Both the position numbers and the translations under genes were made by a program. Positions 43,296-62,839 of a stretch of 64,000 nucleotides of DNA are shown piece after piece (position 1 is the stretch's first letter; every line of letters begins with the position of its first letter). The notes below the pieces were generated by a model. The model searched no databases. It saw only the letters and a program-made list of their open reading frames with translations, and was not told where the DNA came from. The stretch lies in the UHGV virus genome UHGV-1519562. One strand, written 5' to 3'. This stretch comes from a virus.

Positions 43296-43368
43296 TGCGG
43301 AGTAGAGAAACGGTTATCTCGCAACCCTCATAAGGTTGAGAAAGGTGGTTCGACTCCACCCTCTCGCA
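43296..43368 (+). tRNA. tRNA-like, anticodon CAU (Met/Ile2-type), acceptor stem poorly paired
   Basis: D-arm GAGA/AACGGTTA/TCTC, anticodon stem CAACC/GGTTG, loop CTCATAA, T-arm GGTGG/TTCGACT/CCACC; acceptor strands mostly non-complementary. Confidence 0.4.
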
Positions 43369-43490
43369 GAGACATAATCAACCACCTCCACGCGGTATGT
43401 CTTGGGTAAAGCGAACGGTTGAATGATTTTGGGTACATTTGGATAATTTAGTAGCCAAAAAAACTCCATAATATAATGGAGGGATGTATA

Positions 43491-43952
43491 ATGAGTTATA
43501 TTTATAGAATTATTAATAATATAAACGATAAGGTTTATATTGGAAAAACTGCTTTTGATATTTCAAAACGATTCAAAGAGCATTGTAATGATGCTTTTAA
43601 GAAAACAGAAGAAAAAAGACCATTATATGCGACAATGCGTAAATATGGGATAGAGCATTTTACAATAGAACAAATTGAAGAGTGCTCTGACGCTGCGGCC
43701 GCAGACAGAGAAGCCTATTGGATTAGTATGTATTCTGCTTATGAAAAAGGATATAATGCGACTCTTGGTGGCGATGGTAAATTTTTATATGACCACAAAG
43801 CAATTGCTTTGCGACTTCAAGAACATCCATATTCTCAAGATGTAGCAAAGAAGTTTGGATGTTGTGTTGATACAGTAAGAAATATTGCTAATCAATATGG
43901 TATTTCATTATTAGTCAATAATGGCCATAAAAAAAACTATTTCTGCTTATAG
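43491..43952 (+). CDS. GIY-YIG homing endonuclease (catalytic domain plus first DNA-binding module)
   Basis: YIYRIINNINDKVYIGKT...RFKEH...YN.TLGG GIY-YIG signature; ATG 43491 after GGAGGG. Confidence 0.8.
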   Translation: MSYIYRIINNINDKVYIGKTAFDISKRFKEHCNDAFKKTEEKRPLYATMRKYGIEHFTIEQIEECSDAAAADREAYWISMYSAYEKGYNATLGGDGKFLYDHKAIALRLQEHPYSQDVAKKFGCCVDTVRNIANQYGISLLVNNGHKKNYFCL

Positions 43953-44124
43953 TAAAAGCGGTGTTTTAATAAAAACTTTTGAATCTACCTCAGAAGCAGC
44001 TCAGTGGTGTTATGATAATCAAAAATGTGCCACTTTGCACTCTGGTGTTAGAAGCCATATAGCACAATGTGCTAATGGGATTCGTAAATCTGCATATAGT
44101 TATATATGGAAATATGAAAATTAA
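43921..44124 (+). CDS. C-terminal DNA-binding module of the GIY-YIG endonuclease, in a different frame
   Basis: ...IAQCANGIRKSAYSYIWKYEN resembles the C-terminal module of Seg/I-TevI-like endonucleases; frame changes at an A8 run around 43926-43933. Confidence 0.55.
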   Translation: MAIKKTISAYSKSGVLIKTFESTSEAAQWCYDNQKCATLHSGVRSHIAQCANGIRKSAYSYIWKYEN

Positions 44125-44157
44125 AAATATAGACTCATACAGCAAAAATTCTTTAAT

Positions 44158-44230
44158 TCTAAAATAGTCAAAAGGTTAAGACATCACTCTTGAAAAAGTG
44201 AAAATATGGGTTCGATTCCCATTTCTAGGT
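44158..44230 (+). tRNA. tRNA-like with 8-nt anticodon loop CTTGAAAA
   Basis: acceptor TCTAAAA/TTCTAGG (one A-C mismatch), D-arm GTC/AAAAGGTTAA/GAC, anticodon stem TCACT/AGTGA, T-arm ATGGG/TTCGATT/CCCAT; flanked by TAGACTC (44121) / GAGTCTA (44237). Confidence 0.4.
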
Positions 44231-44446
44231 TTAAAAGAGTCTAGTTAAAAATTAAATATAGAAAGGAGAGTTGCTTTATGGATTTGGATGATATGATTTT
44301 TTCTGATGAAGTAATTATTATTAGTGATAGATAATTATTTCTAATTTATATGGAAATGTACTCAATGTTGGCAAAGAGGACGATTTGCTAAATCGTTAGG
44401 TCTATGAGAATAGGCGAGTGGGGTCGGCACCCACCGTTTCCGCCAA

Positions 44447-44517
44447 GAGAATGTGGTGTAATCTGGTAACACGCTAACTTTGGGAGCTAGAGTCGCAGTT
44501 CAAATCTGACATTTTCT
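44447..44517 (+). tRNA. degenerate tRNA-like (anticodon UGG-like), weak T-stem
   Basis: acceptor GAGAATG/CATTTTC, D-arm GTGT/AATCTGGTA/ACAC, loop TTTGGGA; T-stem only 3 bp. Confidence 0.3.
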
Positions 44518-44760
44518 ACCATTTAGACACATACAGCAATTTTATAATACTGATATTATAATTTGTGGCTCGCTGTGGCCCTATTAACAGCTCCATTTAA
44601 TGAAAAAGTATGTCAATGATTTATATTATCTTTTGCGAAAATTTCTTTAATATAATGAGACTTACAAGAAATTTTTTGTGTCTAGTTTTTCTTATTTTAT
44701 CCTTTCTTTCTTCTTTATAAGATGCTTTCAGCAATAATTATTACAAATATATTTTATTAG

Positions 44761-44856
44761 GTTTATTAAAATAGTATATATTATAGCAAATATATTTCTA
44801 TAAAGTTTATTAAAATACTATATAGTAAATATATTTCTATAAGGTTTATTAATAGC
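44761..44856. repeat. AT-rich tandem repeat (about 2.5 copies of an about 40-bp unit) upstream of tRNA-Gln
   Basis: GTTTATTAAAATA(G/C)TATATA..AG.AAATATATTTCTATAA repeated from 44761 and 44805, partial copy from 44844. Confidence 0.6.
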
Positions 44857-44866
44857 ATCTTGATAT

Positions 44867-44942
44867 AGCGGCATAGTCAAGTGGTTAAGACATACGGCTT
44901 TGACCCGTATATCCGTTGGTTCAAATCCAACTGCCGCTGCCA
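44867..44942 (+). tRNA. tRNA-Gln (anticodon UUG)
   Basis: acceptor AGCGGCA/TGCCGCT, anticodon stem TACGG/CCGTA, loop CTTTGAC, T-arm GTTGG/TTCAAAT/CCAAC, G, CCA. Confidence 0.8.
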
Positions 44943-49835: not shown

Positions 49836-51080
49836 ATGAGTTATAATTATGATGAAACTTTTAAATATCCTATTAATGCGTGTTTGAATTTAACAGATAA
49901 TTGTAATCTACAATGCAAATATTGTTTCGTACATCAAAAGCCGCATTATATGGATTTAAAAATGGCTAAAAATGCGATAGATTTTTTAGCTAAAAATTTA
50001 GTAAAATATAAAGAGCTTACTGGAAAAGAAAATCAAAAGAATGAAGTAACATTTTTTGGTGGTGAACCAACTCTTTTGTGGGAACAAATTATTGTCCCTA
50101 TTGTTGAATATACCAAAGAGAAATATCCTAATACCTTTCATTTTGATATGACCACAAATGGGACTCTTCTAAATGAAGAAAGAGTTAAATTTTGTTATGA
50201 TAATGGTATTAAACTTCTTCTTTCTATTGATGGAATAAAAGAAGTACAGGATTATAATCGGCCTTGTCGAGATACAAATTTAAGTAGTTTTGATTTAGTT
50301 GGGAAGAATATTCCTATTATTCTTAAATATTTTCCTAATACTACTTTTCGCTCTACTCTTTACCAGCCAACAATAGATAAAATGTTTGAATCATTTTTGT
50401 TCGCAGAAAAGTGTGGTTTTAGACAAATTTTTATGTGTCCAAATGCTAGAGAAGAATGGTCAGAAGAAAATATTAAAATTTTAAGAGAAGAAATTGGGAA
50501 AATTATTACTTATACGACTATGAATTACATTGAAGGGAAAATTCCCATTCTTTATTCTAATTTAGATAGTGCTTTTGATGATATTATTGATATAGACCTT
50601 CAAACTTATACTAAAAATTTTTCTGATATATCCCCTTCTCGCGGAGTTCGCAGATGTGGTTTAGGAACAGGTTCTATTTCTATCGCTTATGATGGTAAAA
50701 TTTATGGATGTCAAGAGCAAGATTCAAGAGATGAAAATGATTATTTTTATATTGGGGATATTTTTGATGGTATCAATATAGAAAAACATAAGAAAATGCT
50801 AACTGATTATAATGAAGCAATAACTATAATTAGTTCTAAAAAAGAATTATGTAGTAATTGTAAGCTACGACAAGCTTGTATTCATAAAGTTTGTCCTTCT
50901 GTTTCGCATGATATGTTTAATAATTTTTTCATTAGACCATCTATTGATTGTATTTACAATCAAATTCTTCTTGAAGGTGGAATTTTAATGATGAAAATTC
51001 TTGTCGAACAAGAGAAAAATCAATTTTTTAAAGAATATTTAGATTATAAATTAGAAGGTGGTGAATCTATTGGGTTGTGA
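49836..51080 (+). CDS. radical SAM enzyme with SPASM-type C-terminal domain
   Basis: CNLQCKYC (CxxxCxxC) cluster near the N-terminus, TFFGGEPTL and TTNGTLL core motifs, C-terminal CSNCKLRQACIHKVC plus additional Cys pairs. Confidence 0.8.
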   Translation: MSYNYDETFKYPINACLNLTDNCNLQCKYCFVHQKPHYMDLKMAKNAIDFLAKNLVKYKELTGKENQKNEVTFFGGEPTLLWEQIIVPIVEYTKEKYPNTFHFDMTTNGTLLNEERVKFCYDNGIKLLLSIDGIKEVQDYNRPCRDTNLSSFDLVGKNIPIILKYFPNTTFRSTLYQPTIDKMFESFLFAEKCGFRQIFMCPNAREEWSEENIKILREEIGKIITYTTMNYIEGKIPILYSNLDSAFDDIIDIDLQTYTKNFSDISPSRGVRRCGLGTGSISIAYDGKIYGCQEQDSRDENDYFYIGDIFDGINIEKHKKMLTDYNEAITIISSKKELCSNCKLRQACIHKVCPSVSHDMFNNFFIRPSIDCIYNQILLEGGILMMKILVEQEKNQFFKEYLDYKLEGGESIGL

Positions 51081-51859: not shown

Positions 51860-52054
51860 ATGAATAAGATTATTTTTAAAGCTAAGAATTGGACTATGAC
51901 TTTTAGAACTAGACAGCAGGCCCTTGATTTTATCCGTAAAAATTCCATTAATCCTTATACTGCCAATATTTTGGTTCTTATTGGTACTCAGGATGTATTT
52001 TATTTGGGTTCTCCTCGTGCAGATCAGTATTTTGGACTGAAAAGAAAAAATTGA
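51860..52054 (+). CDS. hypothetical protein
   Basis: 64-aa ORF with GAGAGGAG RBS. Confidence 0.5.
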   Translation: MNKIIFKAKNWTMTFRTRQQALDFIRKNSINPYTANILVLIGTQDVFYLGSPRADQYFGLKRKN

Positions 52055-52087
52055 AAATTTAAAAAAATATGATATAATATTTAAGGA

Positions 52088-52152
52088 AAGACTTATACAG
52101 CAAATAAAGCTTAAAAGCACTTGACTGGTAATCAAGAAGAAAAATGAGTCTT
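52088..52152 (+). repeat. conserved spacer hairpin (AGACNNATACAGCAA family)
   Basis: AAGACTT ATACAGCAA ... AGTCTT; related copies at 42607, 43166, 44119, 44519, 52806, 53030. Confidence 0.5.
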
Positions 52153-52166
52153 GCTTAAATATTCAT

Positions 52167-52252
52167 GTGGGCGTGATGAAACAGGAAAACATATCGCACT
52201 TAAAATGCGCTGCTAATCTAGCTTGTGGGTTCGAGTCCCATCGCCCACACCA
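52167..52252 (+). tRNA. tRNA-Leu (anticodon UAA), class II
   Basis: acceptor GTGGGCG/CGCCCAC, loop CTTAAAA, variable arm hairpin GCTA/ATC/TAGC, T-arm GTGGG/TTCGAGT/CCCAT, A, CCA; D-arm atypical. Confidence 0.6.
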
Positions 52253-52317
52253 TCTTTAAAACTGATACTCTTTACTATTAGTTTTGAAGATAACAATGAA
52301 CTTGAGTTTACTAATAT

Positions 52318-52394
52318 GCATCTGTAACTCAACTGGATAGAGTAACTGCCTTCTAAGCAGTAAGCCAGGGGTTCGAGTCCCTTCAGGCGTACCA
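52318..52394 (+). tRNA. tRNA-Arg (anticodon UCU)
   Basis: D-arm ACTC/AACTGGATA/GAGT, anticodon stem ACTGC/GCAGT, loop CTTCTAA, T-arm AGGGG/TTCGAGT/CCCTT, acceptor CAGGCGT-A-CCA (one A-C mismatch). Confidence 0.75.
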
Positions 52395-52579
52395 AGCAGA
52401 ATTATAATAGATAACAAAAGGAAATAGCTGATGTGAAAGGCATCTTGTCTTGCTGACATGACAATAAACTTTGAACGGACGTATAATGCGTATCGTGCCT
52501 GCGGGTGTAGAGTCAGAAAAGTAGGGGAATAATCGAGGAGCAGCTATAGGTGAGGCCCCACCTCCACCTTCCTTAATAT

Positions 52580-52668
52580 GGGGCAATGGCAGAGTTTGGC
52601 TTATTGTACTCGTCTTGAAAACGAGCAAACTAGCAATAGTTTCACTGGTTCAAATCCAGTTTGCCCCG
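52580..52668 (+). tRNA. tRNA-Ser (anticodon UGA), class II
   Basis: acceptor GGGGCAA/TTGCCCC, anticodon stem CTCGT/ACGAG, loop CTTGAAA, 18-nt variable arm, T-arm ACTGG/TTCAAAT/CCAGT; no encoded CCA. Confidence 0.75.
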
Positions 52669-52729
52669 CGGTATCAAGATAGTTACCTTCACGTGGTGAT
52701 ACTGTTTTTACTAAAACTATCAACTATTT

Positions 52730-52803
52730 GTAGATATAGTTTAATGATAGAATTCTGGACTTCCACTCCAGCGATGCGGGTTTGATTCCCGTTATCTACT
52801 CCA
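52730..52803 (+). tRNA. tRNA-Gly (anticodon UCC)
   Basis: acceptor GTAGATA/TATCTAC, anticodon stem CTGGA/TCCAG, loop CTTCCAC, T-arm GCGGG/TTTGATT/CCCGT, T, CCA. Confidence 0.75.
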
Positions 52804-52805
52804 TA

Positions 52806-52858
52806 AAGATACTCACAGCAATTTATTTTTTATAATGGGTATAAAAAAATAAAGTATC
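52806..52858 (+). repeat. conserved spacer hairpin (AGACNNATACAGCAA family)
   Basis: AAGATACT CACAGCAATTTATTTTTTATAATGGG... AGTATCTT; contains a TATAAT box that may serve the downstream tRNA-Thr. Confidence 0.5.
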
Positions 52859-52866
52859 TTGTATTT

Positions 52867-52942
52867 GCTAGTGTAGCACAATAGGTAGTGCAGCGGCCTT
52901 GTAAACCGCAGGTTAAGAGTTCAAGTCTCTTCGCTAGCTCCA
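52867..52942 (+). tRNA. tRNA-Thr (anticodon UGU)
   Basis: acceptor GCTAGTG/CGCTAGC, D-arm GCAC/AATAGGTA/GTGC, loop CTTGTAA, T-arm AAGAG/TTCAAGT/CTCTT, T, CCA. Confidence 0.8.
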
Positions 52943-52944
52943 AT

Positions 52945-53020
52945 GGTTCGCTAGTTCATTAGGTAGAACACTTGCCTTTTAAGCAAGATGTGCTGGGTTC
53001 AAATCCCAGGCGAGCCACCA
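52945..53020 (+). tRNA. tRNA-Lys (anticodon UUU)
   Basis: acceptor GGTTCGC/GCGAGCC, D-arm GTTC/ATTAGGTA/GAAC, anticodon stem CTTGC/GCAAG, loop CTTTTAA, T-arm CTGGG/TTCAAAT/CCCAG, A, CCA. Confidence 0.85.
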
Positions 53021-53395
53021 TTAGTCTTATCATACAGACGTAAAATAAATGAGTACCCCAGATAATGCTGAACTGGGTATCCGGGTATCGGGAGAATTAG
53101 TCTGGTAACTGTTGAAGCGACGATACTGCGTGACCAGGCATAAGGGCGACCTAAGTCGTTAGCTATGGGTAAACAGGTTGATAGCCGCATAGTAAAATGT
53201 TTCCTTGCGTCATTAAAATGCAAAGCGTTATAGGAGAGATGGCGGAGCATTACTCATCTCCACTCCTTCTACTACGAGAAGTAGAAAATCAAGGCTTCTG
53301 AGAAATGCTAATGAGAATGGTCAACCTCTGATTAAAAAAGGACTAAAGCTAGCTTGGGTTTTAGGTTATCCTCCTTACGAGGGAAAACCTTATTT
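53021..53395 (+). other. 375-nt non-coding, hairpin-rich region between tRNA-Lys and tRNA-Leu(CAA) (candidate structured RNA)
   Basis: no ORF longer than about 20 codons on the plus strand; GC-rich stems (CCCCAGATAATGCTGAACTGGG, GAGATGGCGGAGCATTACTCATCTC) and a GGTTATCCTCCTTA element; begins with the spacer motif variant AGTCTTATCATACAGACG. Confidence 0.35.
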
Positions 53396-53479
53396 GCCAG
53401 AATGTTGGAATTGGTAGACAAAGAAGCCTCAAAAACTTCCGCTTTATGCGTGCGGGTTCGAGTCCCGCTTCTGGTACCA
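53396..53479 (+). tRNA. tRNA-Leu (anticodon CAA), class II
   Basis: acceptor GCCAGAA/TTCTGGT, loop CTCAAAA, 12-nt variable arm, T-arm GCGGG/TTCGAGT/CCCGC, A, CCA. Confidence 0.65.
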
Positions 53480-53534
53480 TTAATATCTCTCTTGCCTAAG
53501 AGAGAAAACTAAAAAACAAAAGGAGAAAGTTATT

Positions 53535-55058
53535 ATGGAAAATAAGATGCTTAATATTTTGAAGGAAAAGAATACTCATTCTATCACTGAGAATAGCGGT
53601 TTGACTTATAATTCTACGATGAATGGAATTATGGATTTGTTTGCTCTTGGTGGCGCTTATCGAAATCGCTCAGATGATGATTGTATTTTTCTTTTTAAAA
53701 AGGCTTTTGAGGAAGATATTTCTTATGCCTTGAAGTGTCTCTTTTATTTGCGAGATGTACGTGGTGGACAGGGAGAACGCAGATTTTTTAAGGTTGTAAC
53801 TTCTTGGTTGGCAGTTAATCATATCGAGGAAATGCGTAGAAATCTGAAGTATATTCCTGAGTATGGTCGCTGGGATGATTTGTATGCTTTTGTTGATACT
53901 CCGCTTGAGGCAGATGCTTTTAAGACTATGTATCATCAGCTTGCTCTTGATGTTCAGTGTAAAACTCCTTCTCTTTTGGCTAAGTGGTTGAAGTCTGAAA
54001 ATACTTCTTCTGCGGAATCTCGTATGCTTGGAACTAAAACCAGAATGGCCTTTAATATGTCTCCTAAGCAGTATCGCAAAACTCTCTCTATTCTTCGTGA
54101 AAGAATTAGAGTTTTGGAAAGATTGATGAGTGAAAATCGTTGGGATGAAATTGAATTTGATAAGATTCCTTCTAAGGCAGGTCTAAAGTATCGCAATGCT
54201 TTCGCAAAGCACGATATTGAAAGAGAAAAGTCTAATAAGGTAACTTATGAAGAGTTTGTAAAGGATTCTAATACTAAGGTCAATGCTGATACTCTGAATC
54301 CCGCAGATGTAGTTCATGCTGTTATGTCTAAATTTCCTTATTATAGAGGAAATTTTAATGGAACCGATGTAGAGAGAGCTGCACTCAATAAGTATTGGGA
54401 TAATCTAAAGGATTATTTTAATAATGCTGTTTTTGACGGTGTTGCTGTCGTTGATACTTCTGGTTCTATGTGTGGTTTTTATGGTAGTGAGAAAACTATT
54501 GCACCTATTGATGTAGCTATTTCTCTTGGTATGTATTGTGCTGAGAAGTGTAATCCCAATTCTCCCTGGTATGGACATTATATTACTTTTTCTCGAACTG
54601 CAAGATTGGTGCCTGTTGAAGGTATTGATTTTGTTGATAAGGTGCGTCGAATTTATCAAAAGAATCTTTGTGAGAATACCGACATTAAAAGTATTTTTGA
54701 TTTGCTATTGAGTAATGCTATTAAATATAATATTCCTAATGAAGAAATGCCTAAAAACATTGTAATCATTAGTGATATGGAATTTGATTATTGCGCTGGT
54801 TATTATAATAGTGATGAATATAGATCTGAAATGGAAAAGATTATGCAGGTTTGGAACTCTCATGGTTACACTACTCCGCATTTGATTTTCTGGAATGTTG
54901 ACGCTCGAAATGATAATATTCCCATGAAGATGAAAGATGGTATTACTTTTATTTCTGGCTACTCTGCGGTAACTTATGAAATGTTGATGACTGGTAAAAC
55001 TGGTTTTGATTTGGTTTTGGAAAAGTTGAATAGCAAGAGATATGAAGTAATCAAGTAA
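53535..55058 (+). CDS. vWA (MIDAS) domain protein, DUF2828-like; possible Ro60/Rsr-like RNA-binding protein
   Basis: 507 aa; MIDAS-like VAVVDTSGSM in the C-terminal half after a roughly 300-aa mainly helical N-terminal region (architecture of TROVE plus vWA proteins); family assignment is from memory. Confidence 0.5.
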   Translation: MENKMLNILKEKNTHSITENSGLTYNSTMNGIMDLFALGGAYRNRSDDDCIFLFKKAFEEDISYALKCLFYLRDVRGGQGERRFFKVVTSWLAVNHIEEMRRNLKYIPEYGRWDDLYAFVDTPLEADAFKTMYHQLALDVQCKTPSLLAKWLKSENTSSAESRMLGTKTRMAFNMSPKQYRKTLSILRERIRVLERLMSENRWDEIEFDKIPSKAGLKYRNAFAKHDIEREKSNKVTYEEFVKDSNTKVNADTLNPADVVHAVMSKFPYYRGNFNGTDVERAALNKYWDNLKDYFNNAVFDGVAVVDTSGSMCGFYGSEKTIAPIDVAISLGMYCAEKCNPNSPWYGHYITFSRTARLVPVEGIDFVDKVRRIYQKNLCENTDIKSIFDLLLSNAIKYNIPNEEMPKNIVIISDMEFDYCAGYYNSDEYRSEMEKIMQVWNSHGYTTPHLIFWNVDARNDNIPMKMKDGITFISGYSAVTYEMLMTGKTGFDLVLEKLNSKRYEVIK

Positions 55059-55068: not shown

Positions 55069-55098
55069 AAGAGAGGTAATTTTACCTCTCTTTTTTTA
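55069..55098 (+). terminator. intrinsic terminator
   Basis: AGAGAGGTAA TTT TACCTCTCT hairpin plus T7 run. Confidence 0.7.
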
Positions 55099-55112
55099 TA
55101 AGGAGGATTAAA

Positions 55113-56174
55113 ATGATATTATTAAATGATGATAATAGACATAGAGACTTTACAGGTGTAACTCGTTTCCATAATGCGGGCTATTTTGGAGAAAGAGTAA
55201 ATGCCGCAAGTGGAGAAACCTGGGATATTAATAGATATAATCCAGATAATTTAGTAAGAAATTGTTTAAAGGACAAACAATTTTCAGATGAACATCCAAT
55301 AAATACTGCGGCAACATTTTTTCAAGTAGCTCCAAAAGCTCATCTATTTATGCTTTATTCCATTGATGGCAGTTATGGCAGTAGAGATAATTATAACTCT
55401 AAATTTTTTAATGAATCAGTAGAAATTATTGAAAAATATAATATTACTAATATGTTTACCTCTTTAAATTGCAGTAGACATACTAAATTTTTTGAAGATT
55501 TAAAAAATTGGTATATTAAACATCCTAGTTTTAAACCCTTTTGGTGTGCAGGAAATGATTCTTCTAAAAAATATAATCCAATTATGGAAATTGAAGAAGT
55601 AATCGGCGTAGCCGCTTATACTTTAATGGTAGATGGTACAGTAAATCCTGCTTATTATTCTAGTATTAGTAGCTATGTAGATTTTTCTGCACCTAGTATG
55701 ATTTATTTAAATCCGCAAGCTACAAAACCAGACGCAGCAACTTATTCCAATTCTGGCACTTCTTTTTCTACACCTTGGTTATGTGGAATGAGCTGTCTGG
55801 TAGATGATTTCTTTATTGATAAAAAAGGATTACCTCTAACAAGAGAAGGAATGATTCAATTCTTCAAAGATAATTGTAAAGATATAGGCGATAAGGGAAT
55901 TGATCCAAAAACAGGATTTGGTGCGGTAATTTTACCTGAACCAAATTCTATTGATATTGATAAATATTATAATATTGGGAGGACAAATATGAGTACATTA
56001 GATAAATTTAAAGATAAAAATGATATTTCTAATTGGGCTAAAGCAAGTGTTGAATGGGCTGTTAATACAGGTATTCTTCAAGGTGATGATAAAGGCTATC
56101 TTTTACCCAAAGCTTACCTGACTAGAGAGCAAATGGCAGTTATGTTAGAGCGTTTTAAAAATATTATAAAATAA
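55113..56174 (+). CDS. S8-like serine peptidase with C-terminal SLH (S-layer homology) domain
   Basis: GTSFSTPWLCG resembles the subtilase catalytic-serine motif GTSMA.P; C-terminal W.KASVEWAVNTGILQGDDKGYLLPKAYLTREQMAVMLERF matches the SLH consensus. Confidence 0.5.
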   Translation: MILLNDDNRHRDFTGVTRFHNAGYFGERVNAASGETWDINRYNPDNLVRNCLKDKQFSDEHPINTAATFFQVAPKAHLFMLYSIDGSYGSRDNYNSKFFNESVEIIEKYNITNMFTSLNCSRHTKFFEDLKNWYIKHPSFKPFWCAGNDSSKKYNPIMEIEEVIGVAAYTLMVDGTVNPAYYSSISSYVDFSAPSMIYLNPQATKPDAATYSNSGTSFSTPWLCGMSCLVDDFFIDKKGLPLTREGMIQFFKDNCKDIGDKGIDPKTGFGAVILPEPNSIDIDKYYNIGRTNMSTLDKFKDKNDISNWAKASVEWAVNTGILQGDDKGYLLPKAYLTREQMAVMLERFKNIIK

Positions 56175-56262: not shown

Positions 56263-56597
56263 ATGAAATTATGGGTGGATGATATTCGGCCTGCGCTGCT
56301 GGTTATATTTGGGCTAAATCTGTTGAACAAGCGAAAACTATGATTTCTTTTGCTCAAAATGGTTTTTTAATTGGATTAACTGATGATATTTTTCTTGATT
56401 TAATATCTCTCGACCATGATGCTGGAGATTTTGCTTCTGATGGTGGTGATTATATTGAAATTTTAAATTGGTTAGAAAGGGTTCAAAATGCTTTTGCTTG
56501 GCCTCTTTCTTGTAAATTTCATCTTCATTCCCAAAATCCTGTGGGAGTTCAAAATATGAGGAGAATTATTCAACATAATCACTGGGAGGAGATTTAA
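56263..56597 (+). pseudogene. receiver-like (DD...D) small protein gene split by a frameshift into 56263-56343 and 56340-56597
   Basis: upstream frame encodes MKLWVDDIRPA...; downstream frame continues ...GYIWAKSVEQAKTMISF...ISLDHDAGDF; joined reading resembles a CheY-like acidic-pocket fold; the two frames overlap at ATGA. Confidence 0.35.
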
Positions 56598-56598
56598 T

Positions 56599-57495
56599 AT
56601 GAATAATTATCAAAATTTATATAATATTATTAAAACTATTTATATCCAAAAGCAAGAAGAAAAATCTACCAATTATCATTCTTATATCGAAATTCAAACA
56701 AGAGTAATGGAGCATTACCAAGAAGCTTTAAAAATTTTTCCTAAAGAAAATATTCTTGGTATTTTTTATCAAGGCGCCGCGAATTATGGTCTTGATACTG
56801 TAAATTCTGATGTTGATACTAAATGTCTTATTATTCCTACTATTGAAGATTTGGCTTTTAATAAAAAACCAGTAAGTTATACTCATGTTTTAAATAATAA
56901 TGAACACATTGATTTTAAAGATGTGCGGCTTTATATGAATGAGTTCCGCAAACAGAATATTAATTTTTTAGAAATTTTATACACTGATTATTGTTATGTA
57001 AATCCAAAATATCAATCTTTTTGGAATAAATTAATTTCTAAAAGAGATGAAATTGCTCATTATGATGAATTTAGAGCTTTAAATAGTATGCTTGGTATAA
57101 TGCAAAATGAGATTAATCGCATGTTTAAACCAACAGAGAGTCGAAAAGAAGTTGTAGAAAAATTTGGCTATGACCCAAAATGTTTTAGTCATTTAAATAG
57201 ACTTAGATTATTTTATAGTTGTTACTTGAATGATTCTTATTCTATTTGTTTAAAGTGTTATGATAGTTTTTGGAGAGAAAGATTAATCTTTTATAAAAAT
57301 GGATATGAAGATTTAAGTTTTGTAAAAATTTTTGTTGAAGATCAGCAAGAATGGGTAAAAAACCAGTATGAACGATTAAGTAATGAAAGAAAAAATTATT
57401 CTATCAATATAGAAATTTCTAATTACATGGATGAAGTATTATTAAATATTATTGAAAATTATTTGTGTTCATATTTTCAACCTACTGCTTTTTAA
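56599..57495 (+). CDS. nucleotidyltransferase (pol-beta superfamily NTase fold)
   Basis: GIFYQGAANYGLDTVNSDVDTK fits the hG[GS]x(9-13)Dh[DE]h NTase signature. Confidence 0.6.
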   Translation: MNNYQNLYNIIKTIYIQKQEEKSTNYHSYIEIQTRVMEHYQEALKIFPKENILGIFYQGAANYGLDTVNSDVDTKCLIIPTIEDLAFNKKPVSYTHVLNNNEHIDFKDVRLYMNEFRKQNINFLEILYTDYCYVNPKYQSFWNKLISKRDEIAHYDEFRALNSMLGIMQNEINRMFKPTESRKEVVEKFGYDPKCFSHLNRLRLFYSCYLNDSYSICLKCYDSFWRERLIFYKNGYEDLSFVKIFVEDQQEWVKNQYERLSNERKNYSINIEISNYMDEVLLNIIENYLCSYFQPTAF

Positions 57496-57507
57496 GGAGG
57501 AATTCTA

Positions 57508-58254
57508 GTGAAACAGTATTTTATCACTGGGGATACGCACGGTAAAAATTATCAACGTATTTGTCAAATGATTGAACAATATTCTTGCTCTCCTAAAAAT
57601 TCTTCTCTTATTATTCTTGGAGACGCAGGATTTAATTTTTGGTTAGATAAAAAAGAGCAAAAGTGGAAGAAAAGAGTAAATGATTTAGGATATTCGATTT
57701 ATTGTGTGCGGGGAAACCATGAAGAGCATCCTAAAAATTTACCTAATATTCAAGAAATTTGGGATGCAGAAATTCAAGGTTGGATTTATATTCAACCAGA
57801 TTTTCCTAACCTTAAATATTTGATTGACGGAAATACTTACTACTTTAATAGTCATTCTGCTATTGTTCTTGGTGGTGCTTATTCGGTTGATAAACATTAT
57901 AGATTAATGCAGGCTACTTTGAATCGTACCGATGATTGGACTGGTTGGTTTCCTGATGAACAATTAACACAGCAAGAGATGTTAGATATTAACAATAAAG
58001 TGATTAATCATCATTATGATTTAGTTCTATCTCATACTTGTCCTTTTGATTGGCGTCCTACTGCTTTATTTCTTCCTGGAATTGATCAATCTACTATTGA
58101 TAATACTATGGAAATTTGGATGAATGATTTAAAAGATAAGTTTTCTTGGAATAATTGGTTCTGGGGACACTTTCACGCAAATACAGATTACTATGATGGT
58201 AGATATATGTTATTTGAAAATATTTATAATTTAGAGGATTTAATTAATGATTGA
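57508..58254 (+). CDS. calcineurin-like metallophosphoesterase
   Basis: GDTHGK, GDAGFN, GNHEEH, WGHFH metal-binding motifs. Confidence 0.7.
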   Translation: MKQYFITGDTHGKNYQRICQMIEQYSCSPKNSSLIILGDAGFNFWLDKKEQKWKKRVNDLGYSIYCVRGNHEEHPKNLPNIQEIWDAEIQGWIYIQPDFPNLKYLIDGNTYYFNSHSAIVLGGAYSVDKHYRLMQATLNRTDDWTGWFPDEQLTQQEMLDINNKVINHHYDLVLSHTCPFDWRPTALFLPGIDQSTIDNTMEIWMNDLKDKFSWNNWFWGHFHANTDYYDGRYMLFENIYNLEDLIND

Positions 58255-58576
58255 TGGCGTTACAGTTTTAAAACAATATGATTTTACTTTGGACGCAAAT
58301 TTAATTATTATTCTTAGTATTTTAACTGGTATATTGTTTTTCTTTTTAGTTAAAATGCTTTGGTTTGATATGAAACCTGAAGGAAATTTAATACCTCTTA
58401 TATGGGGAGTAACGATTGGTTTATTAGCTGCTTTTTATTTAAAATCTGATGATTCTTCTCCTTGTCGTTATGATGTTATTATAGATGATTCTGTTTCAGT
58501 TAATGAATTATATAAAGATTATGAAATATTAAAAGTAGAAGGAAAAATTTATACAATTACTTTAAGGGAGAAATAA
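58247..58576 (+). CDS. small membrane protein
   Basis: two hydrophobic helices; overlaps previous stop. Confidence 0.5.
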   Translation: MIDGVTVLKQYDFTLDANLIIILSILTGILFFFLVKMLWFDMKPEGNLIPLIWGVTIGLLAAFYLKSDDSSPCRYDVIIDDSVSVNELYKDYEILKVEGKIYTITLREK

Positions 58577-58578
58577 TA

Positions 58579-59097
58579 ATGACTAATAAATATGAAGCAC
58601 GAATTTTCCCCAATGGACGTATCGCGTTTTATAAAAGCAAAGATTTAGAAGATGCCATCAAAGCTGATAAAGAATTGTTGATTGTATGTAATTGTCATAC
58701 TGGTGGAAGCACTTTAGCTATGGGCGCCCACAAAATGCCCGATCGGAATAATCCTGATGAAACTATCACATTTTTATACAACTCAAGCATCAGCCGTCAA
58801 GTATTTACAGGAGAAGAAATGAATCGTTTTTATAAGGTTATTTTTACTCCTGGCGAAAGGATTTTTGATAATAACTCTGACTATGCTACACGATATGACT
58901 ATGGCCACCATTGTTTCTATAATGGCAGCAAAAAAATGAAAGTAAATGAGGAAATGACTGCGCGTTATCTCAATAAAGAACAAGTAAAAGCAATGATTGG
59001 AATTGGTGTTTTTACTGAAAAGGCATTGGATTACTGTATTGAAGCAATAAGTAATAAAAATGCTATCGAAGATTCTGTAAACGAATGTTCTAGTTAA
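58579..59097 (+). CDS. hypothetical protein
   Basis: 172-aa ORF with GGGAG RBS. Confidence 0.55.
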   Translation: MTNKYEARIFPNGRIAFYKSKDLEDAIKADKELLIVCNCHTGGSTLAMGAHKMPDRNNPDETITFLYNSSISRQVFTGEEMNRFYKVIFTPGERIFDNNSDYATRYDYGHHCFYNGSKKMKVNEEMTARYLNKEQVKAMIGIGVFTEKALDYCIEAISNKNAIEDSVNECSS

Positions 59098-59229
59098 AAA
59101 GAAATTTATTTTAAATTTAAGGACAAAACTTTTAAAAGTTTTGTCATTAATTTATTTTTTTAAAAAAATATTATATAATATATATAGAAAGTTAAGGAAT
59201 AAATAAATAAGAAAGAGGTTGAAATTTTT

Positions 59230-59499
59230 ATGATTTATAGAAAAAGCAAATATAGTAAAGATCAGACTGCAATTTGGCAAGGTGAAACCGCGGTTATTCT
59301 TGCCCAATCAGCAGAAGCTATGACAATAGATGAAATTAAAAAGAATAGTATTCAATTAACAGGTGTTTCTACTCAAAAAATGGCTAGGATTCTTGGGCAT
59401 TTAATTGAAATGGGTATGGTAACAAAAGCAAAAAGCAAAAGTGGTAAAATGGTCTATAAATCTTTAGCAGTTATGGAAGCACAAGGCTATGAAATTTAA
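59230..59499 (+). CDS. small winged-helix-like protein (same family as 36614 ORF)
   Basis: MTIDEIKKN...TGVSTQKMARILGHLIEMGMVTKAKSKSGKMVYK. Confidence 0.5.
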   Translation: MIYRKSKYSKDQTAIWQGETAVILAQSAEAMTIDEIKKNSIQLTGVSTQKMARILGHLIEMGMVTKAKSKSGKMVYKSLAVMEAQGYEI

Positions 59500-59509
59500 A
59501 TAAAGGAGT

Positions 59510-60787
59510 TTGATATTTATGGCATACTATGGTTTAGTAACTAAAATTGAGAATGTAAGAAAAGACCCTAATTCTGATAGACTCTATTTAGCTGACTGTT
59601 TTAGAGAAGGAGTTATTGTAGGCCCTGATATAAAGGAAGGTGAGTTAGTTCTTTATCTTCCTACTGATGGAGCTATTGAGCGTTGGTTTGGTGATGAGTT
59701 TAAGCTTTTCCGCAAGAATTTAGATGGCACCGCACAAGGTGGTTATTTGGAAAATAATGCTCATATTAGAGCAATTAAGCTGAGAGGTAATGAATCTTCT
59801 GGTATTGTTATTTCTTATTCTGCTATTGTTGAGCATTTTGGTGAGCAAAATTGGAAAGACGGCGATCAAGTAACTGAAATTAATAATAAACTGTTTTGTT
59901 ATAAATATATTCCTAGACCTTCGGCTACTCCTCGCACTACTCCTAAGACTTCTTATAAAGGTCGTAAAGCAGCTGGAATTAAGTATCCTGATTTTGCTAT
60001 GCACATTGATACTGCTCAATTAGCTTACAATCTTGGAATCTTTAGACCTGGAGATAAAATTAATCTAACCCTTAAAATGCATGGAACTAGCCAGCGTAGT
60101 GCATATACTTGGGCAGAATATCCTATGTCTTGGTTTAGAAAACTATTTCATATGAAGCCTAAGAGAAAGTTACAGTATGTTTTAGGTACTCGTAGAACTG
60201 TTGTTACTACTGATGGGGCAGGTTATTATGGTAATGACAAATTTAGATTTAGTCATCATGAAGCTTTAAAACCTTATCTTGATGAAGGTATGGAGGTTTT
60301 TTATGAAGTAGTTGGTTGGTATGGAGCAAAAGAAAATGAAACTATTATGCCAATTGTAGATAATAGTAAAATTAATGACAAGAAATTTATGAAAAAGTTT
60401 GGTAAGTATACTACTTTTTCTTATGGTTGTACTCCTGGTCATTCTGCGATGTGGATTTATAGAATTACTTCTCACAATGGAGAGTATGAATATTCTCCAG
60501 AGGAAATTACTACTTGGTGTAATGAATATGGTTTTAATCGTGTTCCTATCATTGAGGATTTTGAATTTACTACTGTTGATGACTTGCTCGCTAAAATTGA
60601 CAAATATTTTGAAGATATTGTTGATCCAGTTGGTTTAACTCATGTTAAAGAAGGTGTAGTGGTTAGAATCGCTAATAGATGTACTTTTACTGCATTAAAA
60701 CAAAAAACCTGGGAGTTTAAAGTCCTTGAAGGTCTAGTTAAAGATACTGAAACCCAGCCCGATATGGAAGAAGCACAGGAGATTTAA
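59510..60787 (+). CDS. ATP-dependent RNA ligase (Rnl2-like nucleotidyltransferase motifs)
   Basis: motif I KMHGTS (compare T4 Rnl2 KIHGTN), motif IV HVKEGVVVR, motif V LKQKTWEFK. Confidence 0.65.
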   Translation: MIFMAYYGLVTKIENVRKDPNSDRLYLADCFREGVIVGPDIKEGELVLYLPTDGAIERWFGDEFKLFRKNLDGTAQGGYLENNAHIRAIKLRGNESSGIVISYSAIVEHFGEQNWKDGDQVTEINNKLFCYKYIPRPSATPRTTPKTSYKGRKAAGIKYPDFAMHIDTAQLAYNLGIFRPGDKINLTLKMHGTSQRSAYTWAEYPMSWFRKLFHMKPKRKLQYVLGTRRTVVTTDGAGYYGNDKFRFSHHEALKPYLDEGMEVFYEVVGWYGAKENETIMPIVDNSKINDKKFMKKFGKYTTFSYGCTPGHSAMWIYRITSHNGEYEYSPEEITTWCNEYGFNRVPIIEDFEFTTVDDLLAKIDKYFEDIVDPVGLTHVKEGVVVRIANRCTFTALKQKTWEFKVLEGLVKDTETQPDMEEAQEI

Positions 60788-60789
60788 AT

Positions 60790-61239
60790 ATGACTTTAGA
60801 AATTATGCACAATGACATGATGCAGGCTTTGAAGAATGGTGATACTCAAAAGAAGAATGTACTTTCCAATATGATTGGTGAAGTACAAAAAGCAGCAATT
60901 ACACCAAAAGGCAGAATTGAAATTACCGAAGAGCTTGTTAATAATACTTTAATCAAGTATCAAAAGATGATTCAAGAAATGATTGATACTTGTCCAGAAA
61001 ATCGCGAAGAGTTATTTATTCAATATAATCTTGATATGGCTGTTGTAAAGCAGTATGCACCACAACTTCTTACTGACAAAGAAGCAATTAAAACTCAAAT
61101 TGAAAAGATGCTTGCAGAAAATAAGCTCGATGCAATTAAGGCAAATAAAGGCAGAGCAATGAAACTTTTTGCTCCTGTTTTTAAAGGTAAAGCAGATATG
61201 AAAATTGTTAATCAAATTGTATCGGAGGTAATGACCTAA
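60790..61239 (+). CDS. GatB/YqeY-domain protein
   Basis: 149 aa; helical protein with ...KANKGRAMKLFAPVFKGKADMKIVNQIV... resembling the YqeY/GatB C-terminal domain. Confidence 0.5.
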   Translation: MTLEIMHNDMMQALKNGDTQKKNVLSNMIGEVQKAAITPKGRIEITEELVNNTLIKYQKMIQEMIDTCPENREELFIQYNLDMAVVKQYAPQLLTDKEAIKTQIEKMLAENKLDAIKANKGRAMKLFAPVFKGKADMKIVNQIVSEVMT

Positions 61240-61240
61240 T

Positions 61241-61420
61241 ATGTTTTATTTAATAATGACGATTATTTGGGGTATCTTAATGTGTGTTAATGGAGTTTTG
61301 CTATGCGAAACAATTTTACATAATAGATGTCAAGAAAAGAAAATGCGTATTTTCTGGTTCCTCTTTTGCGTATTTTGGTTTATTTTTGAAATCTTGCGGC
61401 TCGGAGGCTTTATTCTTTGA
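61241..61420 (+). CDS. small membrane protein (59 aa)
   Basis: ATG 61241 after GGAGG; highly hydrophobic; below track cutoff. Confidence 0.4.
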   Translation: MFYLIMTIIWGILMCVNGVLLCETILHNRCQEKKMRIFWFLFCVFWFIFEILRLGGFIL

Positions 61421-61635
61421 AAATTGTAATTGATAAAAAAGATTTTATGGAATATATTCGTGCTATGGTAGATAAGGATTTTGACAATTTTATGTTTGCA
61501 AATCCTTACGCGACAGAAGAAGATTATATTAATTTATATTATTCTTTTGATACAATTCATAATTTAGATGATATTTGTGAAGAAGAATATTGTAGAAGAA
61601 TTATTAATGGTGAAATAGAAGAAATTGAAGATTGA
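61417..61635 (+). CDS. hypothetical acidic protein
   Basis: 72-aa ORF, TTG start overlapping previous stop (TTGA), GGAGG 8 nt upstream. Confidence 0.4.
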   Translation: MKIVIDKKDFMEYIRAMVDKDFDNFMFANPYATEEDYINLYYSFDTIHNLDDICEEEYCRRIINGEIEEIED

Positions 61636-61735
61636 AAGAATTAAGGGCAAAGATTAAGATCTTTTGCCCTTAATTTATTTTTTTAAAAATTTATATTATA
61701 ATATATATAGAAAGTTAAGAAAGGAATTGATATTT

Positions 61736-61903
61736 ATGAATAAGGGTAAAGTTTATTGTTTTACTGACCTTCATGGCGATTCAAATTTGTTTAAGCAAAT
61801 TAAAAATTTCATTCAAGCAGAAGATAAAGTATTCGTGTTGGGTGATGTAATTGACAGAGGGACAGAAGGTTGTCAAAGCCTTTCTCTACACGAAAATATT
61901 TAA
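61736..61903 (+). pseudogene. truncated metallophosphoesterase (N-terminal fragment only)
   Basis: 56-aa product with TDLHGD and GDVIDRG motifs, then stop; downstream frame lacks the expected GNH motif. Confidence 0.4.
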
Positions 61904-62065
61904 CAGACAATAATATACGTATTATTTTTACAAATTATGTAGAAATGTTAAAATATAAAATTTGGAAAAAGACAGAAATTAAAAAAATAAATACAGAAAA
62001 AGAAAGAAAAGAACTTAAAGAATATTTTGAAATTGTAAAAAAACAAATTGAGGAGTTTGATAAAA

Positions 62066-62341
62066 ATGTCTAAAGACCCTAGAAAATATGAAATGCACGA
62101 TTTTTATTGTATGAATTGCGGAAAGAAGTCAATGTCAATTCCTCGATTAAGAGGACGTTTTAGAGAAGTTGGGCATAAGAAAGTTATGTATTGCCCTCAT
62201 TGTAAAGAAACTGTTAATATGGTAGAATGTAGAAACGATGAAGAAGCATATAATTTTAAACTAGATTTTGAAGAAGGTCTTTTTAAAGAAGAAGCACAAA
62301 ATAGTATTTCTTATGTAAAGGAGTTTGGTATTTATGATTAA
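62066..62341 (+). CDS. zinc-ribbon protein (hypothetical)
   Basis: CMNCG...CPHC pair; ATG 62066 after GAGGAG. Confidence 0.5.
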   Translation: MSKDPRKYEMHDFYCMNCGKKSMSIPRLRGRFREVGHKKVMYCPHCKETVNMVECRNDEEAYNFKLDFEEGLFKEEAQNSISYVKEFGIYD

Positions 62342-62837
62342 TTTGCATATTCTTTGTGGTATTCCTGCTTCCGGCAAATCTACTTGGGCAAAACAACAGA
62401 ATGGTAAAATTATTTCAAGAGATGAAATCCGTAAGAATTATGTAGGCGAAAATCCTGGAAAAAATTATTTTAGTAAAGAAAAACAAGTATATAAAGAAAT
62501 GATTACAAATATTAAAATTGCAATCAAAGAAAATATAAAAAATATTTATATAGATGCAACTCATATTGATGTTTCTTCAAGAGCTAAACTTTTAAACAAT
62601 TTTTTTAATCTAAAAGATAAGAATAATATTAATCTTACTTTTGATTATTTTCCTATTCTTTTAGATGTTGCTTTAAAAAGAAATTCTGAAAGAGAAGGTT
62701 TTGCTAAAGTCCCAGAAGAAGCAATAAAAAATTTTTATTTTAAATCTTCTATTCCTTCTAAGGATGAGATGAATAAATATCTTGATTGGGGTTTTCATAA
62801 TGTGAATACTATTTTGCATTATACTGAGGAGGTGTAA
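62325..62837 (+). CDS. polynucleotide kinase-like P-loop kinase
   Basis: Walker A GIPASGKST at the N-terminus; 170 aa; immediately followed by a phosphoesterase gene (Pnkp-like kinase plus phosphatase arrangement). Confidence 0.6.
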   Translation: MVFMINLHILCGIPASGKSTWAKQQNGKIISRDEIRKNYVGENPGKNYFSKEKQVYKEMITNIKIAIKENIKNIYIDATHIDVSSRAKLLNNFFNLKDKNNINLTFDYFPILLDVALKRNSEREGFAKVPEEAIKNFYFKSSIPSKDEMNKYLDWGFHNVNTILHYTEEV

Positions 62838-62839
62838 TA

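Follow-up and report, generated by a model that had tools for sequence, protein, structure and literature searches.

A Ro60-like protein and candidate Y-RNA-like partner RNAs in the tRNA region of a viral genome

Introduction

Which RNAs, if any, are served by a Ro60-like protein encoded at the end of a viral tRNA array? The question is raised by a 64,000-nucleotide (nt) stretch of the virus genome UHGV-1519562 (hereafter the window), in which a gene for a 507-residue protein directly follows a block of tRNA genes. An initial annotation of this stretch had proposed that the protein, of possible Ro60-like type, and the 375-nt non-coding region at 53021-53395 belong to a phage-encoded ribonucleoprotein. 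That idea survives in spirit, with a YrlA-like element and five further related modules as the candidate RNAs in place of the 375-nt region. With moderate confidence, we consider it probable that the protein is a divergent member of the Ro60 fold, that its cognate ligands are RNAs closed by a stem next to the motif ACAGCAA, and that the two have a role in tRNA processing or repair.

Bacteria and humans alike have particles of Ro60 and Y RNAs, a conserved assembly whose function is a matter of debate; Ro60 takes Y RNA on the outer surface of its ring and RNA ends in the central hole. Canonical bacterial Y RNAs have a terminal stem with the motif GNCGAAN0-1G, which is needed for Ro60 binding, and the YrlA class adds a tRNA-like domain (PMC4201824). 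The study of phage Ro60 proteins is recent: the Ro60 of Thermus phage phiLo, reported in 2025, binds the phage-encoded RNAs Yrl1 and Yrl2 (PMC12135203), and gp130 of the Felixounavirus Bas63, reported in 2024, is a Ro60-like protein that adjoins tRNAs and counters the 'ppl' defence system, its authors guessing that some of the neighbouring 'tRNAs' are Y RNAs (bioRxiv 10.1101/2024.10.10.617714). In jumbo phages, ROT/TROVE proteins have been associated with RNA repair (PMC7824862).

The protein and its predicted fold

The window is AT-rich (GC content 0.32) and carries two plus-strand tRNA blocks, at 42234-44942 and 52167-53479 (ARAGORN, Rfam tRNA), the second of which lies upstream of the protein gene:

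52051-52078, + strand: sigma-70-like promoter, TTGAAA-16-TATAAT with an extended -10 TG (consensus match only)
52167-53479, + strand: second tRNA block, Leu-taa, Arg-tct, Ser-tga, Gly-tcc, Thr-tgt, Lys-ttt and Leu-caa
53535-55058, + strand: Ro60-like protein, 507 aa, N-terminal helical-repeat ring domain (DUF2828) and C-terminal vWA domain with a complete MIDAS motif, the adhesion site that depends on a metal ion (DUF7788)
55069-55099, + strand: intrinsic-terminator-like hairpin (55069-55092) and T run, directly 3' of the protein gene (consensus match only)

Since the tRNA block and the gene share a strand, a promoter-like site stands at 52051 and no terminator is predicted before 55069, the two are probably co-transcribed. 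The open reading frame (ORF) begins 55 nt past the last tRNA and is preceded by AAGGAG, and the MIDAS motif DTSGSM occupies residues 307-312, in agreement with the initial annotation on both the position of the gene and its motif.

Two Pfam families match above their cut-offs, DUF2828 at residues 149-290 (106.5 bits, cut-off 29) and DUF7788 at residues 302-492 (133.3 bits, cut-off 27.1), and the profile PHROG 850, 'RNA-binding protein', is covered almost from end to end (E-value 5.7e-111, profile positions 3-475 of 476). When a structure predicted from a deep alignment was compared with Foldseek, the top twelve matches were all to Ro60, the best of them over the full length; an earlier model built on a shallow alignment (predicted local distance difference test, pLDDT, 76.6) had given the right matches with poor template-modelling (TM) scores. 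In the model a ring of HEAT-like helical repeats is followed by the vWA domain, and the whole can be superposed on solved Ro60 structures. The MIDAS residues D307, S309, S311, T382 and D414 are invariant in 122 homologs, where the mean column identity is 35%, and VWA_2 is matched by 74 of 95 diverse family members. The protein is, according to this model, Ro60-like in architecture and fold and stands outside the TROVE sequence family.

The family is large and widely distributed. A word-indexed search returned at least 8000 scored candidates, all with E-values of 0.001 or less, an exhaustive one yielded 7814 representatives at 50% identity, and with tblastn the protein was found in 705 of 50,697 GenBank phage records, among them Felix O1-like coliphages, Listeria P100, staphylococcal, enterococcal, campylobacter and vibrio phages, and mycobacteriophages. 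Homologs in the last group are already annotated as 'Ro-like RNA binding protein' (e.g. Lolly9 gp54). Felixounavirus proteins fall in the DUF2828 family by tblastn, and Bas63 gp130 would be placed there by its genus rather than by alignment. None of the defence-system models of PADLOC was matched by the protein.

A YrlA-like RNA in the first tRNA block

A candidate partner RNA lies in the first tRNA block, where a 'permuted tRNA-like' element had been noted earlier at 42606-42720. We identify it as a YrlA-like RNA with slightly different limits:

42597-42710, + strand: YrlA-like Y RNA candidate, with a 7-bp closing stem, ACAGCAA, a hairpin, a T arm, a closed acceptor-like hairpin and a D arm

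The element has the architecture of YrlA, namely a terminal stem, a T arm with a GGUUCGA-type loop, a closed acceptor-like hairpin and a D arm, and it aligns over its full length with the Rfam YrlA model RF02553 (24.9 bits, E-value 0.0037 in a search of 411 nt). Matches to the same model stand beside the gene in four unrelated phages, all below the threshold: 34.8-37.8 bits in Bacillus phage PBC2, Mycobacterium phage Lolly9 and locus L012, and 24.9 bits in this window; the Lolly9 match spans model positions 23-89 only, while most of these matches are full-length. Here and below, L-numbers denote the viral loci compared, among them a panel of 80 related loci with a DUF2828 gene. An RNAalifold consensus of 10 phage copies of this tRNA-like class, taken from gut and rumen viral contigs, PBC2, Lolly9 and the Felixounavirus humlepung, contains 23 base pairs, 19 of them with compensatory changes, so that the covarying class spans phages of Firmicutes, Actinobacteria and Proteobacteria. 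In the cmscan alignment ACAGCAA and the GNCGAA of YrlA fall on the same stretch of the 5' strand. The sole clear departure from the motif within the tRNA-like class is the YrlA-like copy of PBC2 (L082, 2602-2727), where ACAGCUAA replaces ACAGCAA.

The ACAGCAA-stem module

Comparison of the gaps between tRNAs in related loci brought out a module of which the YrlA-like RNA is one form. Its layout is 5'-N-A-G-R-N-N-N, 2-4 nt, ACAGCAA, a cargo, N-N-N-Y-C-U-N' and G-3', the two arms forming a 7-bp stem. The variable stem positions co-vary between copies, as in AGACTT/GAGTCT, AGGCTC/GAGCCT, AGAGCC/GGCTCT, AGGGGC/GCCCCT and AGATAC/GTATCT. With a covariance model, R1, built from the 10-copy tRNA-like alignment, six copies were detected in the window at 23.7-85.2 bits, each of them on the plus strand and within one of the two tRNA blocks; the highest value is the self-score of the YrlA-like RNA, which belongs to the seed. 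The other five are the following:

43164-43230, + strand: module with a small AU-rich hairpin as cargo, YrlB-like in size (R1 35.0 bits, E-value 3.5e-5; arms AAGACAC and GTGTCTT, then G)
44130-44244, + strand: module enclosing a tRNA-like RNA with an 8-nt anticodon loop (R1 30.7 bits; arms TAGACTC and GAGTCTA, then G)
44524-44685, + strand: module with a cargo of about 130 nt of unassigned type (R1 23.7 bits; arms TAGACAC and GTGTCTA, then G)
52088-52153, + strand: module with a small hairpin as cargo, the first element past the predicted promoter of the second block (R1 29.6 bits; arms AAGACTT and GAGTCTT, then G)
52806-52861, + strand: module with a small hairpin as cargo, between tRNA-Gly and tRNA-Thr (R1 26.4 bits; arms AAGATAC and GTATCTT, then G)

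The tRNA-like cargo of the second of these (44158-44230, + strand) is reported by ARAGORN as 'tRNA-???' with the four-base anticodon tgaa and matches the Rfam tRNA model at 51.4 bits; a Y-like mimic of tRNA and a tRNA of the frameshift-suppressor type are both possible readings.

Because counting covariation on arms that were selected for pairing would be circular, the stem was assessed by a permutation in which arms were exchanged between copies. The exact complement of a copy's own arm is found within 450 nt downstream for 92 of 119 non-redundant 5' motifs, against 12.9 +/- 3.4 after exchange and at most 23 in 1000 permutations. A scanner for the module found 125 copies on the strand of the gene against 6 on the opposite strand and 0-8 in block shuffles.

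Several classes of cargo are carried by the same stem: AU-rich hairpins (50-85 nt for the whole module), permuted tRNA-like domains with a T arm, a closed acceptor-like hairpin and a D arm (110-140 nt), apparently normal tRNAs, as in L034 (Tyr), L070 (Ile), L016 (Thr) and at 44158-44230 of the window, and larger domains of unassigned type. A sub-family with the stem GAGAGCC/GGCTCTC occurs in L023, L032, L041-L049, L053, L055, L056, L061, L062 and L068, with cargos of about 70-155 nt in modules of 91-174 nt; the cargos are alike in L047-L049, L053 and L056, and the sub-family may be a distinct structured RNA on the same handle. Directly upstream of the DUF2828 gene in L063-L077 (about 3805-3943), the cargo looks like a whole permuted class-II tRNA-Tyr, in the order anticodon arm (loop CUGUAAA), long variable arm, T arm, acceptor 3' strand with CCACCA, loop, acceptor 5' strand and D arm; its ends are joined by the ACAGCAA closing stem, and CCACCA lies in a closed acceptor hairpin. 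Two tRNA-like units that seem interleaved, with a split or permuted look, stand just upstream of the Ro-like gene of Vibrio phage vB_VpaP-MS02 (L085, 4664-4930), where a 3' half A (T arm and CTTCCCC-GCCA) is followed by a 5' half B (GGACAGT and D arm), a second ACAGCAA, a 3' half B (T arm and ACTGTCC) and a 5' half A (GGGGAAG and D arm).

Linkage between the module and the DUF2828 gene

The module and the protein gene are linked when the search starts from either side. Starting from the protein, the scanner places at least one module within 4 kb in 57 of the 80 viral DUF2828 loci, and R1, run on 87 loci, finds 76 copies, all on the strand of the gene; in L041-L045, L063-L077 and L080 fewer than 100 nt separate an upstream copy from the start codon. 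The seven GenBank phages examined all hold unannotated modules, with 2-7 scanner matches each, at about 20-560 nt from the gene in five of them and in the adjacent tRNA block in PBC2 and humlepung:

Mycobacterium phage Lolly9: three modules, 43-300 nt downstream of the gene (about 42125-42383)
SEP9: three modules, the first 20 nt downstream of the gene
Vibrio phage vB_VpaP-MS02 (MS02): four or five modules, up to 560 nt upstream of the gene
Campylobacter CP30A: two modules, up to 175 nt upstream of the gene
Listeria P100: three modules, up to 340 nt upstream of the gene
Bacillus PBC2: seven modules and one ACAGCUAA variant, in the upstream tRNA block
Felixounavirus humlepung: three or four modules, in the downstream tRNA block (10721-10790, 11275-11345 and 11362-11490 of the record)

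The gene has no tRNA array beside it in Lolly9, SEP9, MS02 and CP30A, where a single tRNA gene at a distance of 1-2 kb is the most that occurs; it is therefore the protein gene, rather than tRNA clusters in themselves, with which the module is associated. Starting from the RNA alone, the pattern AGACACNNACAGCAAN{30,60}GTGTCTNG was found in at least 120 viral stretches, few of which would be chance matches by our rough estimate, made with an assumed collection size. A DUF2828 homolog is encoded by 64 of the 120 stretches listed, always on the same strand and in many cases within 100-200 nt, whereas among GenBank phage records the protein occurs in only 705 of 50,697. Y-RNA-like genes thus stand near a Ro-like gene, on its strand, in the window, the panel, the GenBank phages and the reverse search alike, and the linkage of handle and DUF2828 gene spans phages of Firmicutes, Actinobacteria, and Gamma- and Epsilonproteobacteria.

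A proposed particle and its alternatives

The layout of the module matches that of Y RNAs, with ACAGCAA replacing GNCGAA, and for this reason we read ACAGCAA and its stem as a divergent Ro-binding handle. In the mechanism that we propose, the protein encoded at the end of the tRNA operon would form a helical-repeat ring that a vWA/MIDAS domain closes, and its ligands would be small Y-RNA-like transcripts that share the 7-bp end-to-end stem, ACAGCAA 2-4 nt past the 5' arm and a G past the 3' arm. One protein would recognise this handle and serve several RNAs with differing cargo or effector domains, as Ro60 does with YrlA and YrlB; what the stem presents would vary between small hairpins, permuted tRNA-like domains of the YrlA kind and entire tRNA-like RNAs. 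If Ro60-Y RNA particles and the bacterial rsr-yrlBA-rtcBA operon are taken as models, the particle would recruit or gate RNA-processing or repair enzymes on tRNAs during infection, and phage translation would be shielded from host defences that target tRNAs. A role in the surveillance, repair or protection of tRNAs during infection is favoured because the RNA-repair island downstream of the gene (described below) parallels rsr-yrlBA-rtcBA and the link of ROT/TROVE proteins to RNA repair in jumbo phages, and because Bas63 gp130 was reported to counter a defence system.

The resemblance to Ro60 (TROVE2) and its bacterial form Rsr, with their Y RNAs (YrlA, YrlB, Yrn1), extends to the ring of helical repeats with a MIDAS-bearing vWA domain, the several small RNA genes beside the protein gene on the same strand, the terminal closing stem with a conserved motif on its 5' strand and, as in YrlA, one RNA class that mimics tRNA by a T arm, a closed acceptor-like hairpin and a D arm. 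The differences are that a TROVE sequence match is lacking, that ACAGCAA stands in place of GNCGAAN0-1G with YrlA scores of 25-38 bits against a cut-off of 69, and that up to seven modules occur per locus, embedded in phage tRNA arrays and with cargo ranging from 30-nt hairpins to whole tRNAs. Genes for an RNA ligase and for end healing are linked here as in the Salmonella rsr-yrlBA-rtcBA operon, although an ATP-dependent ligase of the Rnl type (Pfam RNA_ligase) is encoded here and not RtcB. The phiLo system (PDB 9KOP, 9L5Y; PMC12135203) likewise has one Ro60 protein serving more than one RNA, Yrl1 and Yrl2; in contrast to the present case, its protein is a recognisable TROVE member, its RNAs carry a CGAA motif and it has no tRNA array or repair island like those of the window. 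For Bas63 gp130 and the mycobacteriophage 'Ro-like' proteins we found no partner RNA defined in the literature, whereas specific unannotated candidates are located here.

Several observations weigh against this proposal. On the side of the protein, Pfam TROVE (PF05731) is matched by none of the 95 diverse family members at E-values up to 1, and profile searches of the PDB, with 32- and 122-sequence profiles, did not reach Ro60. On the side of the RNA, the canonical GNCGAAN0-1G motif is absent, ACAGCAA holding its position in all copies, and the YrlA matches, at 24.9-37.8 bits, all fall short of the RF02553 gathering score of 69. In the window a distance of 674 nt separates the gene from the nearest module, and one of 11 kb from the YrlA-like copy; it is thus the comparison with other phages that carries the association, and not this locus by itself. 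Promoter-like sites are no more numerous than in shuffled sequence, and the promoter and terminator calls on which co-transcription leans are consensus matches. Modules also flank genuine-looking tRNAs, an arrangement that suits a processing signal equally well, and the binding of ACAGCAA-stem RNAs by the DUF2828 protein is a candidate interaction that we infer from these comparisons.

The first of these points bears on the family to which the protein had been assigned. Of the TROVE-plus-vWA classification in the initial annotation, the fold is upheld by Foldseek and PHROG 850 and the sequence family is not; even vWA_Ro60 is matched by only 2 of the 95 members, and weakly (E-value 0.085). As the link to TROVE or Ro60 is not visible at the sequence level, we call the protein Ro60-like by fold and not a TROVE family member. 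The same lack of a TROVE signal, together with the wide occurrence of vWA domains and the fact that some homologs are recorded just as 'vWFA protein', would suit a vWA protein that does not bind RNA (a MoxR-type co-chaperone, a structural or an adhesion protein) and that resembles Ro60 only through a generic combination of alpha-solenoid and vWA domain. We regard this as highly improbable.

The alternative that concerns the modules themselves is that they are RNA-processing signals, either stems cleaved by an RNase III-like or phage nuclease or sites of ligation or circularisation by a phage RNA ligase in the maturation of permuted or embedded tRNA-like cargo, and that their linkage to the gene reflects a shared island of tRNA metabolism. 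The modules that enclose normal-looking tRNAs fit this explanation, as do the permuted tRNA-like cargos of L063-L077 with CCACCA in a closed acceptor hairpin and the RNA ligase, kinase and phosphoesterase genes nearby. However, many modules hold just a short AU-rich hairpin, with nothing to mature; those of Lolly9, SEP9, MS02 and CP30A adjoin a DUF2828 gene with neither a tRNA array nor an annotated ligase gene nearby; and ACAGCAA occupies the Ro-binding position of GNCGAA in YrlA. We consider the processing signal unlikely as the sole explanation, and it may coexist with protein binding.

Binding of the ACAGCAA-stem RNAs by the Ro60-like protein, which we prefer, can be taken further. DUF2828 proteins and these RNAs could form a widespread phage ribonucleoprotein in which one ring reads a universal handle on swappable cargo (permuted, split or whole tRNA-like) and either delivers these RNAs or damaged tRNAs to the ligase, kinase and phosphatase kit or decoys host anticodon nucleases; in its extreme form, some of the permuted CCACCA cargos would mature to working tRNAs. 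This wider version is speculative and, in our judgement, has rather a small chance of being correct.

Phage Ro60-Y RNA particles are already known, and the Ro-likeness of this protein family is reflected in some annotations. What appear to be new are the ACAGCAA-stem handle, its modular cargo and the tight two-way linkage to DUF2828 genes. Rfam 15 contains no family for the handle, and full-text literature searches returned nothing relevant on it, an absence of evidence only, given their incomplete coverage. Should the ligands of the DUF2828 branch prove to be the ACAGCAA-stem RNAs, defined and testable partner RNAs would become available for hundreds of cultured phages, including Felix O1-like coliphages, Listeria P100, phages of staphylococci, campylobacters and vibrios, and mycobacteriophages. 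It would then be possible to give a mechanistic annotation to the 705 GenBank records and to thousands of metagenomic proteins that have this fold, and the many 'pseudo-tRNAs' and empty gaps in phage tRNA arrays would be explained. The link to the repair island would make the dealings of Ro60 with tRNA-like RNAs directly testable in tractable phage-host pairs.

The 375-nt spacer next to the gene

The region first proposed as the RNA of the particle lies between the last two tRNAs of the second block:

53021-53395, + strand: orphan GC-enriched non-coding spacer of 375 nt, between tRNA-Lys(ttt) (52945-53020) and tRNA-Leu(caa) (53396-53479)

Its non-coding nature is borne out: stops occur in all plus-strand frames, leaving no ORF on that strand, and the sole ORF over the region is antisense, of 83 aa, with its start inside a tRNA. 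The one variant of the region that was found differs by 7 substitutions and a 2-nt indel, and the indel argues against coding. The GC enrichment reported earlier is real (0.42 against 0.32 for the window and 0.16-0.29 in three other spacers of the tRNA blocks), but it is not unique, since the Arg-Ser spacer reaches 0.43. The description 'full of stems', on the other hand, did not hold: the minimum free energy of -97.1 kcal/mol compares with -91.9 +/- 5.7 for dinucleotide shuffles (z-score -0.9; -0.5 for the other strand), and z-scores of about -2.1 to -2.4 are reached by the sub-domains 53140-53195, 53195-53395 and 53355-53395 against mononucleotide shuffles only. As to the segment thought to resemble an anti-Shine-Dalgarno sequence, GGTTATCCTCCTTA is present at 53364-53377; mimicry of that sequence was rejected as its function, the CCTCC within it being paired as one arm of a small hairpin (CCTC/GAGG), with no ORF following and no further support.

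The 375-nt spacer lies outside the ACAGCAA-stem family, as R1 scores 3.0 bits on it with filters off, against 23.7-85.2 for the six true copies. It contains neither ACAGCAA nor a T-loop, and its opening, TTAGTCTTATCATACAGACG, has a loose resemblance only to the module. A giant module closed by pairing of the 5' TTAGTCTT with AAGGACTAA at 53341-53349 is ruled out by the R1 score; we estimate that a match of 7-8 bp would arise by chance within 375 nt about one time in three. A tRNA or transfer-messenger RNA (tmRNA) remnant was also rejected, relaxed ARAGORN settings giving no credible candidate. With Rfam 15 nothing was found in the region at the gathering threshold, or at E-values up to 10, other than the flanking tRNAs and chance matches on them. 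These results leave the spacer with no detectable relation to Y RNAs or to the module family.

The spacer is also confined to one lineage. It is unmatched in GenBank phages by blastn and has a single copy, 97.6% identical, in the 80 related loci (blastn, nhmmer); exact 18-mer and 21-mer scans of IMG/VR gave three chance matches in unrelated GC-rich contexts and none, respectively, and look-ups of the exact protein and of a 98% relative returned only copies that are 100% or 97-97.6% identical. In relatives whose protein is at most 72% identical no copy is detectable, and the tRNA-block gaps inspected hold small ORFs or other sequence. In the consensus fold of the two variants no substitution breaks a pair and one C:G becomes U:A, which is weak evidence of covariation, with two sequences and a method that rewards covariation. 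The divergence of the variants, 2.4%, resembles that of the adjoining protein gene (97% amino acid identity).

What, then, is the spacer? It is flanked by tRNAs on a probably continuous transcript and would for that reason be freed by tRNA-processing enzymes, and we consider it most likely to be a lineage-specific RNA cut from the precursor in this way. The best analogy is provided by rnaC and rnaD of phage T4, small stable non-tRNA RNAs of a phage tRNA cluster that are released by tRNA processing; no relation in sequence or structure is claimed. A lesser but substantial chance, clearly short of even, belongs to a spacer without function, carried in the operon as the decayed remnant of a tRNA, module or mobile element or as a recent insertion. 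Such an origin agrees with the two near-identical variants of a single lineage, with the absence of a family match, with a folding energy not distinguishable from that of shuffles and with a divergence like that of the neighbouring gene. It accounts less well for a GC content of 0.42 among AT-rich block spacers, unexpected for drift in a phage of 32% GC, and for sub-domain z-scores of about -2.3 and predicted pairs undisturbed by substitutions.

Far more doubtful is that the spacer is itself a structured, Y-like partner of the Ro60-like protein. It adjoins the gene on the same strand and probably on the same transcript, it is non-coding and GC-enriched, its variants keep the pairs of the consensus fold, and Ro60 proteins are known also to bind large misfolded RNAs through their central hole. 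Against this, there is no Rfam match, the module model, ACAGCAA and T-loop all fail to be found, the fold as a whole is no more stable than shuffles, the covariation comes from two sequences, and the region is missing in the more distant relatives, which nevertheless keep the protein and the modules.

The Arg-Ser spacer (52395-52579, + strand, 185 nt) is likewise non-coding; it contains CCACCTCCACCTTCC and a promoter-like site at 52458-52487, and its fold has a z-score of -0.4. It has no match to R1, nor to Rfam at the gathering threshold.

The RNA-repair island

Downstream of the Ro-like gene, and separated from it by a subtilase/SLH protein (55113-56174), an island of genes for the healing and sealing of RNA ends (56340-63385, + strand) was recognised by Pfam and PHROG matches:

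56340-56597, + strand: cREC_REC, cyclic-phosphate-processing receiver domain
56599-57495, + strand: RlaP-like nucleotidyltransferase (Pfam RlaP 16.9 bits, below the cut-off of 23)
57508-58254, + strand: metallophosphoesterase
59510-60787, + strand: RNA ligase of the ATP-dependent Rnl type (Pfam RNA_ligase 26.3 bits, below the cut-off of 27)
60790-61239, + strand: YqeY-like protein
62325-62837, + strand: AAA_33 P-loop kinase
62840-63385, + strand: second metallophosphoesterase

The RlaP-like and RNA ligase calls, both below their Pfam cut-offs, are backed by PHROG 388 (E-value 5e-16) and PHROG 968 (E-value 2e-47).

Other features of the tRNA region

Between the two tRNA blocks, a radical-SAM protein (49836-51080, + strand; Pfam E-value 4e-15, PHROG 1802) may be an RNA- or nucleoside-modifying enzyme. 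Directly 3' of tRNA-Met (43297-43368), at 43369-43422 on the plus strand, there is a weak match to the hepatitis delta virus (HDV)-like ribozyme RF02682 (19.7 bits, E-value 1.5, gathering score 44); the immediate 3' side of a tRNA is the reported site of 'theta' ribozymes, which are small, HDV-like and found in gut phages.

No suppressor tRNA is present in the window itself. A tRNA with the anticodon CTA (reported by ARAGORN as 'Pyl', i.e. an amber suppressor) is found in L002-L012, L016, L017, L023 and L028 and suggests stop-codon reassignment in those relatives. The same tRNA block of L016 contains a tmRNA (946-1256, Rfam 72.3 bits). In humlepung (L083), an unannotated gap of the Felix O1-type tRNA block (7848-8153) gives weak matches to the permuted tmRNA RF04321 (29.2 bits, E-value 0.04) and to tmRNA (16 bits), and is followed at 8155-8233 by an unannotated tRNA-like match of 31.7 bits.

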